The notes beneath the pieces were generated by a model. It was not told the DNA's origin and did no database searches. It worked only from the letters and a program-made list of their open reading frames with translations. The position numbers and the translations under genes are program-made. Source: Oscillospiraceae bacterium (GTDB lineage: Bacteria; Bacillota; Clostridia; Oscillospirales; Oscillospiraceae). From it: a DNA stretch of 64,000 bases. Numbering within the stretch: position 1 is the stretch's first letter; each line of letters begins with the position of its first letter. The stretch lies in assembly GCA_022779345.1 (NCBI GenBank), contig JALFTG010000027.1, positions 10,275 to 74,274 of the forward strand, in the 5' to 3' direction. This document shows positions 9,538 through 40,437 of this stretch, piece after piece.

Positions 9538-10650
9538 TCAGACCTCCAGTACTTTGTCATAAACCGCTTCCACATTCCGGGCGAAGATCTCGCCGGTGAA
9601 GCGCTGGGAATAGATTTCTCCGGCCCGCCGGCCCATGCGGTGCAGGGTGTCCGGGTCGTCCATGAGCTGTGCGATTTTTGCCGCCAGGTCGGCGCTGTCC
9701 TGATTGGTGAACAGCAGCCCGTCGTCCCCGTCGTCGATGACCCAGGGATTCCCGGCGCAGTTGCTGACCACGGCGGGCAGGCCCATGCTCAGCCCCTCCA
9801 GCACCGACAGGCTGGAGGTCTCCGTCACATAGGAGGCGTTCAGCTGCAGGTCCAGCAGGGACAGAAAGCGGTCGATCTCCGTGACCAGACCGAAAAACCG
9901 CACCCAGGGGTCCAGCCCCATCTCATGGCACAGGGCCTTCACTTCTTCCTCATATCCGCCGGTGCCGCCCACCAGCAGATACACCTCCCGGCCCTGATCC
10001 CGGAGGAGCCGCAGGGCTTCCAGAATGTACCGGTGGCCCTTGTATTCCTCGATCCGGGCCAGAATGCCGGTGACGAAGGCGTTGTCCGGGATGCCGTAAG
10101 CTTTCCGCAGGGCGGCGCATTCCGACGCGTCCAGGCGGGGGACCGGCTCCACGCCGTTCATCATGGTGTCGATCATCTCCGGGTCGATGCCCCCCTCCAG
10201 GAGATTCACCCGGGAGGCTTCGCTGACGGCGATGATCCGGTCGGCGAACAGCTCGTTCACGGTTTTGTACACGAACCGGCCCAATCCTTTCTGCATCCGG
10301 GGGGACAGGGGAAAGGCGGAATGCCGGGTGTAGACGATTTTTGCCCCGGTGCCCCGGGCGGCGATCCGGCCGGACATGGCCCCGTGGGTGTGGACAATGG
10401 CGGGCTTTTCCGCCCGGATGATCTTCCGCAGCGCCCGGATGCCGGTCAGGGACAGGGACTGTTCTCCCAGCCCGTCCGCCTCGATGACGGGGACGCCCAG
10501 CGCCTGCACCTGGGGGGCCAGCAGGCTGTCATGGGGCAGGACCACCTTCACCTCAAACCGGGAGCGGTCGTAGTATTTCAGAAAATTCAGCAGGCACCGC
10601 CCGGCGCCGCCGATGTTGGTGTCGCTGATGACATTCAGGACTTTTATCAT
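9538..10650 (-). CDS. family 4 glycosyltransferase
   Basis: MIKVLNVISDTNIGGAGR..., an EEYKGH region and ETSSLSVLEGLSMGLPAV (E-x7-E). ATGA overlap with the upstream gene. Confidence 0.85.
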   Translation of the reverse strand: MIKVLNVISDTNIGGAGRCLLNFLKYYDRSRFEVKVVLPHDSLLAPQVQALGVPVIEADGLGEQSLSLTGIRALRKIIRAEKPAIVHTHGAMSGRIAARGTGAKIVYTRHSAFPLSPRMQKGLGRFVYKTVNELFADRIIAVSEASRVNLLEGGIDPEMIDTMMNGVEPVPRLDASECAALRKAYGIPDNAFVTGILARIEEYKGHRYILEALRLLRDQGREVYLLVGGTGGYEEEVKALCHEMGLDPWVRFFGLVTEIDRFLSLLDLQLNASYVTETSSLSVLEGLSMGLPAVVSNCAGNPWVIDDGDDGLLFTNQDSADLAAKIAQLMDDPDTLHRMGRRAGEIYSQRFTGEIFARNVEAVYDKVLEV

Positions 10651-16990: not shown

Positions 16991-17067
16991 TGGTACGCCG
17001 TAAGGGATTCGAACCCCTGACCTTCTGGTCCGTAGCCAGACGCTCTATCCAGCTGAGCTAACGGCGC
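16991..17067 (-). tRNA. tRNA-Arg (anticodon ACG), CCA encoded
   Basis: Folded by hand as a cloverleaf. Anticodon loop CTACGGA, T-loop TTCGAAT, D-loop AGCTGGATA. Positions 1:72 form a G:U wobble. Confidence 0.9.
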
Positions 17068-37187: not shown

Positions 37188-38037
37188 TCTTGTCCACTTC
37201 TTCCTTGATGAGTCTGCCCTCCCGGAGGAGCTCTTCCAGCCGGGGGCGGTCGCCGCCGGCGAGGGCGGCGCGGTATTTGGTGAGGTTATCCATAAAGGTA
37301 TCCAGCTCACTGAGCAGGTAATCCTGATTGTCCAGGAACAGTTCCGCCCACATGGTCTCATTCAGCCAGGCCACGCGGGTCATGTCCTTGTAGCTGCCGG
37401 CGGAGTAGCCCTTGTGTTCCCGGGCGGTGGGACTTTTCACGAAGGCGTTGGACACCACATGGGCCATCTGGGAGGAGAAGGCGATCATGCGGTCGTGATT
37501 CTCCGCGGTGGTGATGGTCACCCGTCCGAACCGGCAGGGGGTCAGCAGGGACTTGATGTGATCAAAAAAGTCGATGTCGTCAAATTCCGGCGGGACGATG
37601 ATCATGGAGGCGTCCTTATACATGGTGGGACGGCTGTATTTGTAGCCGGAGAACTGGGTGCCCGCCATGGGATGCCCGCCCACAAACCGGAAGCCGTGTT
37701 CCTTTGCCAGGGCGAAGCAGGCCTCGCATACCTGCCGCTTGATGCCGCAGGTGTCCATGACGATGGGGCGCTGCCCGATGTACGGGGCCATCTCTTTGAG
37801 ATAGTCAATGGTGGCCTGGGGATACAGGGCGATGATCACCAGATCGCAGGTGCCGATGTTGTCCTTTGACAGTTCCCCGGACACCACGCCGTTCATCTCT
37901 GCCAGTTCCAGGGTGTCCCGGCTGCGGTTCCAGGCCAGGACCGTGTGGCCCGCGGCGGCGTACGCCTTGGCAAAGCTGCCGCCCATCAGGCCCAGACCGA
38001 CCACGCCGACGGTCAGCTGCTGAAAGTCACTCTCCAT
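37168..38037 (-). CDS. tyrA: prephenate dehydrogenase
   Basis: MESDFQQLTVGVVGLGLMGGSFA... Rossmann fold, GGHPMAG. Confidence 0.85.
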   Translation of the reverse strand: MESDFQQLTVGVVGLGLMGGSFAKAYAAAGHTVLAWNRSRDTLELAEMNGVVSGELSKDNIGTCDLVIIALYPQATIDYLKEMAPYIGQRPIVMDTCGIKRQVCEACFALAKEHGFRFVGGHPMAGTQFSGYKYSRPTMYKDASMIIVPPEFDDIDFFDHIKSLLTPCRFGRVTITTAENHDRMIAFSSQMAHVVSNAFVKSPTAREHKGYSAGSYKDMTRVAWLNETMWAELFLDNQDYLLSELDTFMDNLTKYRAALAGGDRPRLEELLREGRLIKEEVDKIDYRSR

Positions 38038-38042
38038 GTCGC

Positions 38043-39050
38043 TCACCCTCTCATGGCCTCCAGGATGCGGCCCACGCTGGCCGTGACCTGATCGAACTGG
38101 TCGGGGGTGAGGGACTGGGCGCCGTCGCACTTGGCATGGGGAGGATCGTTGTGGACCTCGATCATCAGGCCGTCAGCACCCACGGCGGCAGCGCCCATGG
38201 CCATGGTGGGCACCATGCGGCTCAGGCCGGTGGCGTGGCTGGGATCCACGATGATGGGCAGGTGACTCAGCTCATGGACAGCGGGGACGGCGGACAGGTC
38301 CAGGGTGTTGCGGGTGTAAGTCTCGTAGGTGCGGATGCCGCGCTCGCACAGGATGACCTCATGGTTGCCGCCGGCCATGATGTACTCGGCGCTCATGAGC
38401 CACTCCTGGATGGTGTTGGCCAGGCCGCGCTTGAGCAGAATGGGCTTGCGGCAGTGGCCGATCTCTTTCAGAAGCTCGAAGTTCTGCATATTCCGGGCAC
38501 CGATCTGGATGATGTCGATATCATCGAACAGGTCCAGGTGCTTGATGTCCATCAGTTCGGTGACGATGGGCAGGCCGGTCTCTTTCTTGGCCTCCAGCAG
38601 CAGGCGGATGCCTTCCTCGCCCATGCCCTGGAAGGAGTAGGGGGAGGTGCGGGGCTTGAACGCGCCGCCGCGCAGGATCTGGGCACCGGCGGCCTTCACC
38701 CGCTGGGCGCAGTAGATGATCTGTTCTTCGCTCTCCACGGAGCAGGGGCCGGCCATGTAGACGAAGTTGCCGCCGCCGATCTTCGTGCCGTTTTTCAGTG
38801 TAATGACGGTGTCATCGGGGTGGAACTTCCGGTTGGCCTGCTTGAAGGGCTCGGAAACCCGTTTTACAGATTCCACAATGTCCAGGGCCTCGATCAGCTC
38901 GGTGTCGATCTTGCTCACATCGCCCACCAGACCCATGATGGTGATATCGGTGCCTCTGGAGATGTCGGGTTCCACGCCCTTGGCCTTGAACCAGTTGCTC
39001 AGGTTCTCAATCTGTTTTTCGGATGCGCCTTGTTTCAGAACTACGATCAT
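38043..39050 (-). CDS. aroF: 3-deoxy-7-phosphoheptulonate synthase (type I-beta with N-terminal ferredoxin-like extension)
   Basis: MIVVLKQGASEKQI.. then GPCSVES...GAFKPRTSPYSFQG. GGGAGG RBS. Confidence 0.9.
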   Translation of the reverse strand: MIVVLKQGASEKQIENLSNWFKAKGVEPDISRGTDITIMGLVGDVSKIDTELIEALDIVESVKRVSEPFKQANRKFHPDDTVITLKNGTKIGGGNFVYMAGPCSVESEEQIIYCAQRVKAAGAQILRGGAFKPRTSPYSFQGMGEEGIRLLLEAKKETGLPIVTELMDIKHLDLFDDIDIIQIGARNMQNFELLKEIGHCRKPILLKRGLANTIQEWLMSAEYIMAGGNHEVILCERGIRTYETYTRNTLDLSAVPAVHELSHLPIIVDPSHATGLSRMVPTMAMGAAAVGADGLMIEVHNDPPHAKCDGAQSLTPDQFDQVTASVGRILEAMRG

Positions 39051-39065
39051 GTCTGTTTCCTCCCT

Positions 39066-39106
39066 GAAAAAAATCAAGCCGTACAGCGATCATGCTGTAC
39101 GGCTTC
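39066..39106 (-). terminator. attenuator terminator in the aro operon leader
   Basis: Minus strand: AAGCCGTACAGC-ATGATC-GCTGTACGGCTT (12-bp stem) followed by GATTTTTTT, ending 13 nt before the aroF RBS. Confidence 0.7.
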
Positions 39107-39140
39107 TTACTTTCTGTGTGTTGAGTCTGAGGTCCGTATT

Positions 39141-39221
39141 TTATGCAGCACAAATCGCTATTACTTTGTTCTTCGTAAAGTAATAGGTAAAGTATGCATA
39201 AAAGTAAGAAACGAACTTCAT
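39141..39221 (-). CDS. Phe/Tyr-rich leader peptide (26 aa: MKFVSYFYAYFTYYFTKNKVIAICAA)
   Basis: ATG lies 8 nt after AAAAGGAG. Nine of codons 3-15 are Phe (4) or Tyr (5). Sits between the promoter and the terminator upstream of aroF. Confidence 0.6.
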   Translation of the reverse strand: MKFVSYFYAYFTYYFTKNKVIAICAA

Positions 39222-39251
39222 GGAATGGACTCCTTTTGATTTGCTGGAACT

Positions 39252-39280
39252 AAGATACACCAAACATCGGGTCTTGTCAA
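39252..39280 (-). promoter_or_regulatory. sigma-70-type promoter of the aro leader
   Basis: Minus strand: TTGACA (39280-39275), 17 nt, TATCTT (39257-39252). Confidence 0.55.
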
Positions 39281-39366
39281 CACTTTTTATCACTTTGCAG
39301 TAAGAAAGTTTTTTCAATCCCGCCGCCAGGCATCCTCTTTGACCTGCTTCAGCAAGTCCTGCAGGC

Positions 39367-40437
39367 TTACCGATGATCTTTAAAAACCCACTCCCGCTGG
39401 ATGGTGAAGCTGATGAAGAACAGGCAGGTGTCCACCACCACTTTCAGAAGGGTGGCAATGATCTTGCTGCCCGGGGCGATGAAGCGGTCCAGCAGGGACA
39501 CCAGCAGGGCGGACACCAGCATCTGGGGCACCGCCAGAGCGTAGTACCGGAACAGGTTTTTCCCATATCTGCCGCCACTGCCGAACACCACTTTCCGGTT
39601 CATATTGAAGTTCCAGAAAGAGGACACCGCCCGGGCCAGCACCGTGGCCCACAGAATCTGATACGGTGACCGGGGCAGCACCGTCAGCAGCACATAGAAC
39701 ATGGCAAGATCCACCGCCGTGGCGGACAGGGAGGAGGCCATGAACACGAAGATCAGCTTCAGGATCTTCAGGGAGTCCACGATGGGGCGGAAATGGGTGC
39801 CCTCGTTCTGCCCGTCATACACCGTCTCAATGGGCACTTCCAGAAAGCCGATGCCCAGCCGCTTCATGGTCAGCAGCATATTCGTCTCGTACTCAAACCG
39901 CTCCCCCTTCACCTGACAGAATCCGGCCAGATACTGCCGGGGGATGGCCCGCAGGCCGGTCTGGGTGTCCGACAGGCGGATACCGCAGCCGATGCGGAAC
40001 AGGGCGGAGGTGAATTTGTTCCCGGAGCGGCTTTTCGGCGGTACCTGGGGGGCATTGAAATCCCGGCAGCCCAGAATCACCTGATCCGGGTGCTCCAGCA
40101 TCGTCCGGGCGCAGGCGATGATGTCCTTCGTCCGGTGCTGCCCGTCCCCATCGATGGTGACGGCGCCTCTGGAATGGGGACGATGGGCAAGCAGGTATTC
40201 AAAGGCCGTTTTCAGCGCCCGGCCCTTGCCCCGGTTGACCGTATGGGTCAGCACCGTGCAGCCGGGCAGGGCGGCCGCTTTTTCGAACCAGACCAGCCGG
40301 TCCGGATCACTGCCGTCATTCACAATGAGAATATCCGTAAAGCCTGCGTCCGCCAGCTCCGTGACCACCCGGAGGAATTTTTCATCCGGGTTCAGGGAGG
40401 GCAGGACGACGGTGATATCCGTTCGGTAATCTGCCAT
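39367..40437 (-). CDS. family 2 glycosyltransferase fused to a GtrA-like membrane domain
   Basis: ITVVLPSLNPDEKF...IVNDGSD (GT2). C-terminus has 4 TM helices of GtrA type. Confidence 0.8.
   Translation of the reverse strand: MADYRTDITVVLPSLNPDEKFLRVVTELADAGFTDILIVNDGSDPDRLVWFEKAAALPGCTVLTHTVNRGKGRALKTAFEYLLAHRPHSRGAVTIDGDGQHRTKDIIACARTMLEHPDQVILGCRDFNAPQVPPKSRSGNKFTSALFRIGCGIRLSDTQTGLRAIPRQYLAGFCQVKGERFEYETNMLLTMKRLGIGFLEVPIETVYDGQNEGTHFRPIVDSLKILKLIFVFMASSLSATAVDLAMFYVLLTVLPRSPYQILWATVLARAVSSFWNFNMNRKVVFGSGGRYGKNLFRYYALAVPQMLVSALLVSLLDRFIAPGSKIIATLLKVVVDTCLFFISFTIQREWVFKDHR

Follow-up and report, generated by a model that had tools for sequence, protein, structure and literature searches.

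A candidate phenylalanine- and tyrosine-sensing attenuator upstream of the aroF operon of an Oscillospiraceae bacterium

What controls the synthesis of phenylalanine and tyrosine in an uncultured gut bacterium of the Oscillospiraceae? The question is raised by a 64-kb stretch of DNA (64,000 nucleotides, positions 10,275 to 74,274 of contig JALFTG010000027.1, assembly GCA_022779345.1), here called the window. On its minus strand, a mini open reading frame (ORF) rich in Phe and Tyr codons and an intrinsic terminator precede an operon that begins with aroF and contains the genes for the shikimate pathway together with pheA and tyrA. An initial annotation, made from the letters alone, had proposed that the element is a ribosome-mediated attenuator. 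This proposal is supported by about 70 of 80 related loci and by conserved, locus-specific pairings, and the element is very probably a ribosome-mediated transcription attenuator which senses charged tRNA-Phe and tRNA-Tyr and controls the aroF operon.

The leader and its alternative pairings

The region from 38900 to 39500 was read on the minus strand. The promoter, ribosome binding site and 26-codon ORF of the initial annotation are all present, as are the nine Phe or Tyr codons among codons 3-15 (Table 1). The promoter (39280-39252) is the sole promoter-like match in the 1.5 kb from 38500 to 40000. Both of its hexamers and their 17-nt spacing are kept in L001, the closest relative among the aroF loci surveyed below (TTGACA-17-TATCAT), though the spacer itself has diverged. 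The leader peptide has Phe at codons 3, 7, 11 and 15, Tyr at codons 6, 8, 10, 13 and 14, and no Trp. Nowhere else in the 64 kb of the window is there a mini-ORF so rich in aromatic residues (7 or more in 12 codons). The 12-bp terminator stem, formed by AAGCCGUACAGC (39105-39094) with GCUGUACGGCUU (39087-39076) and followed by U7, was confirmed and has a calculated stability of -21.0 kcal/mol. Its distance from aroF needed correction. The U-tract had been placed 13 nt before the aroF ribosome binding site whereas the Shine-Dalgarno (SD) sequence GGGAGG (39064-39059) lies 2 nt past the end of the U-tract, and the aroF ATG (39050) lies 16 nt past it. The leader RNA as a whole folds at -54.8 kcal/mol (z = -5.07) and none of 200 shuffled sequences was equally stable. 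The locus thus has a translatable ORF with an SD sequence, a cluster of codons for the end products and an intrinsic terminator before the first gene, as in a classical attenuator.

Four regions are distinguished: the regulatory codons (region 1), a downstream segment (region 2) and the two arms of the terminator (regions 3 and 4). Region 2 can pair with region 1. The inner 1:2 helix is formed by AAAGUAAUAG (39167-39158) and the Tyr-Tyr-Phe codons CUAUUACUUU (39186-39177); further pairing is found between UGCAUAAAA (39147-39139) and UUUUAUGCA (39203-39195), and the outermost pairing in the window joins ACGGAC (39137-39132) to GUUCGU (39216-39211). The complete 1:2 structure (39216-39177 with 39167-39132) has a stability of -20.9 kcal/mol. 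Region 2 can also pair with the 5' arm of the terminator to give an antiterminator. The initial annotation had pointed to UGCUG...UACGG, which flanks the leader stop codon, as complementary to CCGUACAGCA of this arm, and this proved to be the best antiterminator in the window at -14.1 kcal/mol. It lies in a shifted register used by the window and L001. The register found as the family consensus gives only -5.4 kcal/mol in the window, and was rejected as the window's antiterminator on account of this weakness. The leader UAA sits between the UGCUG and UACGG halves of region 2, so that a ribosome at the UAA would cover both halves and the terminator could form, a masking effect which had been foreseen. 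The 1:2, 2:3 and 3:4 pairings are mutually exclusive, with the regulatory codons in region 1 and an antiterminator that a ribosome at the stop codon would block, and this too is the arrangement of a classical attenuator.

Equilibrium folds of the full leader with ribosome masks gave the terminator in every case. As the terminator would be expected always to win at equilibrium in a kinetic switch, such folding is uninformative and folds of the nascent transcript were used instead. The RNA was cut before the 3' arm of the terminator and ribosome occupancy was imposed as a constraint. With no ribosome, or with the ribosome past codon 15, region 1 paired with region 2. With no ribosome and the RNA truncated where the 5' arm ends, all of the arm was free; when the loop was included, about two thirds of the arm was drawn into a long-range helix specific to the window. 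With the ribosome at the stop codon, the arm was just partly engaged, again in the long-range helix. With the ribosome on Phe/Tyr codons 8-15, nearly all of the arm was sequestered in the antiterminator. Folding with the leader codons constrained, a check suggested by the initial annotation, thus moves the 5' arm into the antiterminator in nascent RNA.

The long-range helix is a perfect 13-bp pairing which links leader codons 4-7 to a segment abutting and overlapping the base of the terminator. In some folds it shortens the base by 2-4 bp, or forms without a ribosome. A shorter form of it, UUCUUACUUU with AAAGUAAGAA, had been offered as the first of two complementarities that could build alternative folds. 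This complementarity is real and extends further than was noticed, but it is not conserved. The helix is unique to the window, being absent from L001 and 64 other loci, and over 65 loci the corresponding pairing is no better than non-cognate pairings (p = 0.71). Judged by these comparisons it is a lineage-specific helix and not a feature of the family. A more speculative and doubtful idea is that in the window it supplies a third state, which would signal whether any translation of the leader takes place.

Other observations were made close to the leader. The 9-mer TTTCTTACT of leader codons 4-6 recurs on the minus strand at 39306-39298, just 5' of the -35 box. It was considered as an operator and rejected; it is not conserved in L001 and for this reason is probably a chance copy. 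On the plus strand, 39032-39114 gave a weak match to the Rfam trpB non-coding RNA motif (24 bits, E = 0.66, where the gathering score is 59). This is an antisense reading of the terminator hairpin, which has A/U-rich flanks on both sides and so looks bidirectional. A weak plus-strand match to the long non-coding RNA family FTX_2 was taken as chance.

Recurrence of the leader upstream of related aroF genes

Species-representative genomes were scanned with the AroF of the window, giving 80 species-level loci (L001-L080) at 64-90% identity. Almost all are from Clostridia (Oscillospiraceae, Lachnospiraceae, Christensenellaceae, Anaerovoracaceae and others), and L001 is from an Oscillospiraceae metagenome-assembled genome (MAG). 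A leader was scored where a stop-free stretch of 12 codons within 450 nt upstream of aroF contained at least 7 Phe, Tyr or Trp codons. This was found in 68 of the 80 loci, against background rates of 1.4% in 1,608 control segments and 3.3% in dinucleotide shuffles. A leader ORF could be defined in 71 loci, window included, nearly all with an ATG and an SD sequence. A hairpin with a T-run lies between the ORF and aroF in 68 of these 71, in 62 of them at -14 kcal/mol or lower, a level reached by 1.1% of shuffles. The distance from the last Phe/Tyr codon to the terminator has an interquartile range of 58-72 nt. Phe and Tyr make up 0.73 of the codon cluster in frame and 0.17-0.18 in the other frames. 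Every one of 65 non-redundant cores has two or more codons each for Phe and Tyr (means 3.8 and 3.9) and none contains Trp, which matches an operon with pheA and tyrA but no trp genes. The peptides range from 14 to 79 amino acids, keeping their composition but not their sequence or length. The gene order aroF-tyrA-aroB-aroA is kept in most of the related loci.

Some loci depart from this pattern. In L003, L011, L025, L043, L045 and L076 no obvious Phe/Tyr leader was seen upstream of aroF and no Rfam match, to a T-box or otherwise, was obtained; some of these may have a leader farther upstream or one with a non-ATG start. L055, L066 and L080 are labelled Alloprevotella, Victivallaceae and Victivallales, yet their AroF is of the clostridial type (66-70% identity) and they are probably mis-binned MAG contigs. 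A clear Phe/Tyr leader is present in L066 and at most a weak one in L055.

The pairings were compared across loci by an alignment-free test in which each locus's own partner is set against the partners from other loci. For region 2 with the terminator arm, the cognate gain is -8.4 kcal/mol against -4.9 kcal/mol for non-cognate arms (p = 3e-9); for the Phe/Tyr region with the region downstream of it, the values are -12.4 and -6.4 kcal/mol (p = 3e-15). By this measure both the 1:2 and the 2:3 pairings are locus-specific and conserved. Across loci, the sequestered fraction of the 5' arm was 0.66 with a stalled ribosome, higher than the 0.55 obtained in its absence (p = 4e-4) or the 0.49 obtained when the ribosome sat at the stop codon (p = 3e-5).

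A subfamily allows the pairings to be followed by alignment. A region-2 block, GUAAUAG-CGAUUU-GUGCUGC, is common to 22 of the 65 leaders, window included, and these 22 sequences form alignment A2, in which the block occupies columns 88-108. The 20-nt block is near-invariant among species whose AroF proteins are just 65-70% identical. In A2 the terminator helix is paired in 94.6% of cells, with compensatory changes in 9 of 11 pairs, so that a search of orthologous aroF upstream regions, as the initial annotation had advised, returned both recurrent Phe/Tyr mini-ORFs and a covarying stem. The inner 1:2 helix, CUAUUACUUU with AAAGUAAUAG, is paired in 98.6% of cells and mostly invariant. The consensus 2:3 helix is paired in 84%, compared with 28-61% for slid controls. 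In the subfamily, the Ala-Ala-Gln codons GCNGCACAG ahead of the Phe/Tyr run are identical to the 5' arm of the terminator, and UUGUGCUGC in region 2 resembles the 3' arm, CUGUGCNGC. Regions 1 and 2 thus resemble regions 3 and 4, respectively.

The ORF ends at a UAA inside the region-2 block in 18 of the 22 leaders, 16 of which have a tandem UAA-UAG. In the remaining four, those of the window, L001, L024 and L049, a different frame stays open across the block and encodes the tail K-V-I-A-I-C-A-A. Since the frame of the block and the position of the stop vary by lineage, selection acts on the RNA pairing and the Phe/Tyr codons and not on the tail of the peptide. A profile built from A2 matches the window, itself one of the 22 members, once (39227-39069, E = 5e-23). 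It also finds about 17 further leaders at E < 1e-3, every one directly upstream of aroF, which points to one diverging family.

The gene assignments of the operon agree with the initial annotation. The order is aroF-tyrA-aroB-aroA-aroC-pheA-aroE/K-aroQ, with the part after aroF spanning 31061-38130, and the operon comprises the complete common pathway and both the Phe and the Tyr branch, but no trp genes (Table 1). The true starts of tyrA and aroB are probably further inside the limits of the longest ORFs. A GC-rich hairpin (30993-30966) follows aroQ, between it and a gene for a large OYE-type Fe-S flavoenzyme on the plus strand (28772-30928), convergent with the aro operon. The best match of this enzyme is the bile-acid protein BaiCD, but the score of 630 bits is below the cut-off of 825 and indicates a paralogue rather than BaiCD proper. 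Upstream of the leader, 39367-40437 on the same strand encodes an unrelated glycosyltransferase, for which a strong terminator of its own was not found. The sole match in the window at Rfam gathering level is a tRNA gene at 16994-17067 on the minus strand.

Table 1. Positions of the leader elements, their pairings and the genes of the aroF operon in the window.
Feature	Position	Strand	Details
Sigma-70-type promoter	39252-39280	minus	TTGACA (39280-39275), 17 nt, TATCTT (39257-39252); 10 of 12 matches
Leader SD sequence AAGGAG	39230-39235	minus	8 nt 5' of the ATG at 39221
Leader ORF	39141-39221	minus	26 codons and UAA (39143-39141); peptide MKFVSYFYAYFTYYFTKNKVIAICAA
Regulatory codons (region 1)	39177-39215	minus	4 Phe and 5 Tyr in codons 3-15; core codons 6-15 (39206-39177)
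Region 2	39132-39167	minus	pairs with region 1; holds the family-conserved block GUAAUAGCGAUUUGUGCUGC (39166-39145)
Antiterminator (2:3)	39090-39153	minus	UUGUGCUG (39153-39146) and UACGG (39138-39134) with CCGUACAGCAUGA (39102-39090)
Long-range 13-bp pairing	39102-39212	minus	GUUUCUUACUUUU (39212-39200) with GAAAGUAAGAAGC (39114-39102); perfect, duplex -14.8 kcal/mol
Intrinsic terminator (3:4)	39067-39105	minus	12-bp stem, 6-nt loop, GA, then U7 (39073-39067)
aroF (DAHP synthase)	38043-39064	minus	first structural gene, limits include SD; NF006421, 482.7 bits, cut-off 335
tyrA (prephenate dehydrogenase)	37168-38130	minus	longest-ORF limits
aroB	36120-37361	minus	longest-ORF limits
aroA	34891-36198	minus	longest-ORF limits
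aroC	33917-34894	minus	longest-ORF limits
pheA (chorismate mutase-prephenate dehydratase, CM-PDT)	32735-33910	minus	longest-ORF limits
aroE-aroK fusion	31492-32718	minus	longest-ORF limits
aroQ	31061-31546	minus	longest-ORF limits

Proposed mechanism and rival explanations

From the elements, pairings and conservation described above we infer the following course of ribosome occupancy, kinetics and response in vivo. Transcription would start at the promoter and a ribosome would load at the leader SD sequence and ATG. When Phe and Tyr are plentiful, the ribosome would pass the nine Phe/Tyr codons and reach the UAA, where its footprint would lie over UGCUG and UACGG of region 2; after its release, region 1 would re-pair with region 2. 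The 5' arm would thereby be left free, the 12-bp terminator and U7 would form and RNA polymerase would stop before aroF. When Phe-tRNA or Tyr-tRNA is scarce, the ribosome would stall in codons 6-15 and occupy region 1. Region 2 (39153-39134) would then pair with the 5' arm (39102-39090), no terminator would form and the whole operon from aroF to aroQ would be transcribed.

Several points weigh against this mechanism. The antiterminator of the window taken alone barely beats shuffled sequences (p about 0.06). The 2:3 helix of the subfamily is backed mostly by conservation, with double changes in 2 pairs alone, and the subfamily consensus has a weak outer 1:2 helix, paired in just 67% of cells of A2. 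The near-invariance of the 20-nt region-2 block exceeds what pairing strictly requires. The effects of occupancy across loci, calculated from minimum free energy folds, are modest. The literature gave no experimental evidence for the window locus or for any clostridial member. A more general difficulty is that the Bacillota are classed at phylum level as organisms with 'runaway transcription', where the polymerase outpaces the ribosomes, as reported for B. subtilis. Such behaviour would hamper ribosome-mediated attenuation, as the mechanism needs a ribosome close behind the polymerase. However, Fuchs et al. argue that runaway transcription does not apply to C. difficile, and the prevalence of the leader in Clostridia itself bears on the debate.

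Known families of regulatory RNA do not account for the locus. At gathering score, Rfam 15 gave no T-box, riboswitch or leader family in the window, and a permissive scan of 38800-39600 with E values up to 10 gave no match on the minus strand, which excludes the T-box, riboswitch and Phe, Trp, His and Leu leader families. Phe_leader, Trp_leader, His_leader, Leu/phe-leader and the other Rfam leader families were thus rejected over this interval. The T-box riboswitch, with its specifier loop and T-box sequence, was rejected as no covariance-model match was found in the window or in 12 related loci, most of them without a clear leader or terminator; a scan of these 12 loci at Rfam gathering score gave no match of any kind. 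The initial annotation had named a fitting T-box or other riboswitch as an objection to attenuation, and no such model fits the region. Eight leader peptides scanned against NCBIfam and Pfam belonged to no family.

The near-invariant block is the starting point for the best of the rival explanations, in which a trans-acting factor, either an RNA-binding protein or uncharged tRNA, reads the block AAGUAAUAGCGAUUUGUGCUGC or the U-rich UAY/UUY repeats and the ORF is incidental. The block is more constant, at 65-70% AroF identity, than simple pairing would need, and the repeated triplets recall binding sites of the TRAP type. Against this, the block is constrained jointly by its pairing with the Tyr-Tyr-Phe codons, its pairing with the terminator arm and its stop codons, and two thirds of leaders, without the block, still have the ORF and terminator. 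The ATG, SD spacing, in-frame Phe/Tyr codons and stop are conserved in about 70 loci, the signal is frame-specific and neither a T-box nor any other Rfam model matches. We consider a trans-acting factor improbable.

It is somewhat less probable again that the leader senses general translation capacity, such as a slowdown, antibiotics or the stringent response, in the manner of erm or vmlR leaders, rather than Phe and Tyr specifically. Any stall in region 1 would release region 2, and expression from the aroR leader of Corynebacterium glutamicum is described as affected by Phe and not by Tyr, which suggests that codon content is not a full predictor of specificity. However, the core is about 73% Phe plus Tyr, the two are balanced, Trp is absent and Phe and Tyr are exactly the end products of the operon. 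Inspection by eye showed no macrolide-type arrest motif, no search being aimed at one.

A functional small hydrophobic peptide, with the hairpin acting as a leaky constitutive terminator or an mRNA-stability element, is very improbable. Such a role would suit the hydrophobic character of the peptide and its recurrence in numerous genomes, but its composition alone is conserved, lineages differ in the frame in which they read the RNA block or have the stop codon within it, no Pfam or NCBIfam family was found and the position is always directly upstream of aroF. A chance ORF beside the terminator of the glycosyltransferase gene, suggested by the common strand and the lack of a strong terminator for that gene, is effectively refuted already, since the hairpin lies 260 nt past the glycosyltransferase stop and downstream of a conserved promoter, the upstream gene in L001 has a separate terminator while leader and terminator are still kept, and the leader persists even though 79 of the 80 loci have a different gene upstream.

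Attenuation by a ribosome on the leader would explain how the whole shikimate, Phe and Tyr pathway is tuned to the supply of aminoacyl-tRNA with neither a protein regulator nor a T-box, in this uncultured Oscillospiraceae-type gut bacterium and in most of its relatives. The element could also serve as a ready-made Phe/Tyr-responsive part for the engineering of gut anaerobes.

Comparison with known systems

T-box leaders are the usual sensors of amino acids in Firmicutes. Like the element in the window they make a choice between terminator and antiterminator upstream of amino-acid genes; however, they sense tRNA, whereas the sensor in the window would be a translated ORF and no T-box model matches. 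The enterobacterial pheL-pheA leader (Rfam Phe_leader) resembles the window in having a leader with codons for the end product and 1:2, 2:3 and 3:4 hairpins. It differs in having Phe codons only and in controlling pheA alone, and there is no similarity of sequence or structure, as no Rfam leader family matches the region at E values up to 10. The initial annotation held that a classic attenuator would be unusual in Firmicutes. This is outdated, given two classes discussed below, uORF-12 and uORF-13 (PMC6429828), and other leader peptides of Firmicutes; His and Leu leader peptides are also known there.

Two systems outside the Clostridia also precede aroF. In the accounts of Neshat et al. (2014) given in PMC11802643 and PMC3890552, the aroR leader of C. 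glutamicum encodes Phe-Tyr-Phe upstream of aroF, and stalling under Phe limitation raises read-through whereas Tyr has no effect; the response to Phe is reported from experiment. It is like the window in placing a leader peptide with Phe-Tyr-Phe ahead of the gene for DAHP synthase. As so described, aroR belongs to the Actinobacteria and has three regulatory codons against nine in the window, and its peptide and RNA structure are stated by Stav et al. to be distinct (PMC6429828). The uORFC-13-1 motif of Acholeplasma (Brewer et al. 2021, PMC8632094), with 24 representatives in Acholeplasma and environmental sequences only, has an upstream ORF with Phe codons by an intrinsic terminator and is found exclusively upstream of aroF, as is the leader in the window. 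However, it is described with at least one Phe codon and has no Tyr-rich run (PMC8632094).

The closest precedents are uORF-12 and uORF-13, termed 'aromatic amino acid attenuators' by Stav et al. (2019, BMC Microbiol 19:66, PMC6429828; Fig. 6b, Additional files 1 and 3), found starting from Clostridium novyi. Class uORF-12 has 1,258 representatives, mostly upstream of transporters. It shares with the window an F/Y-rich peptide, a host range in Firmicutes and some association with shikimate and Phe/Tyr genes. Unlike the window it lies mostly at amino-acid transporters, and it has a more complex structure in which the peptide is encoded just before P1, whereas the leader in the window precedes aroF and is laid out simply as 1:2, 2:3 and 3:4. 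The 336 representatives of class uORF-13 come from Firmicutes (Clostridiales, Bacillales, Thermoanaerobacterales, Negativicutes) and from metagenomes; roughly half precede aroF, and tyrA is the second most frequent gene behind them. In this class a terminator follows a short ORF that encodes an F-Y-F consensus, and it was proposed to act like the trp attenuator (PMC6429828). C. difficile is among the species listed with both classes (PMC6429828), and term-seq in C. difficile has revealed premature termination at aroF which was left unexplained and which lends attenuation in vivo indirect support. No follow-up or experimental test of either class was found in the literature.

The window has the described features of uORF-13: a short aromatic ORF of the F-Y-F type directly upstream of a terminator stem, at aroF and tyrA, in Firmicutes. 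The likeness is one of description, as the uORF-13 covariance model is not in Rfam. The published account places F-Y-F 'within the loop of P1', whereas the Tyr-Tyr-Phe codons of the window form the 5' strand of the inner helix, and it gives neither an antiterminator nor an experiment (PMC6429828). In the lineage of the window, moreover, the block is read in another frame and the register of the antiterminator is shifted. As the class has no model in Rfam or in the searched NCBIfam and Pfam libraries, its mini-ORFs are likely to be missed in genomes or called hypothetical.

A bolder interpretation is that the aroF leaders of gut Clostridia are a much larger and structurally distinct system, found in about 90% of the nearest species and dominant in controlling the synthesis of Phe and Tyr among Oscillospirales and Lachnospirales, with obligatory dual sensing of Phe and Tyr, duplication of region 1 as 3 and of region 2 as 4, and a stop, usually a tandem UAA-UAG, in region 2. 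We regard this as doubtful. If it were true, the prevalence of the leaders would be direct genomic evidence of functional coupling of transcription and translation in Clostridia, unlike B. subtilis.

On its described features, then, the element in the window fits uORF-13, and it is a new member of a class already predicted in 2019. To that description the present analysis adds an explicit antiterminator and a logic of ribosome occupancy, the rule that Phe and Tyr codons occur together, and the duplication that relates region 1 to region 3 and region 2 to region 4. It further adds stop codons embedded in region 2 and indicates that the element is the rule, not the exception, among the nearest clostridial aroF operons.

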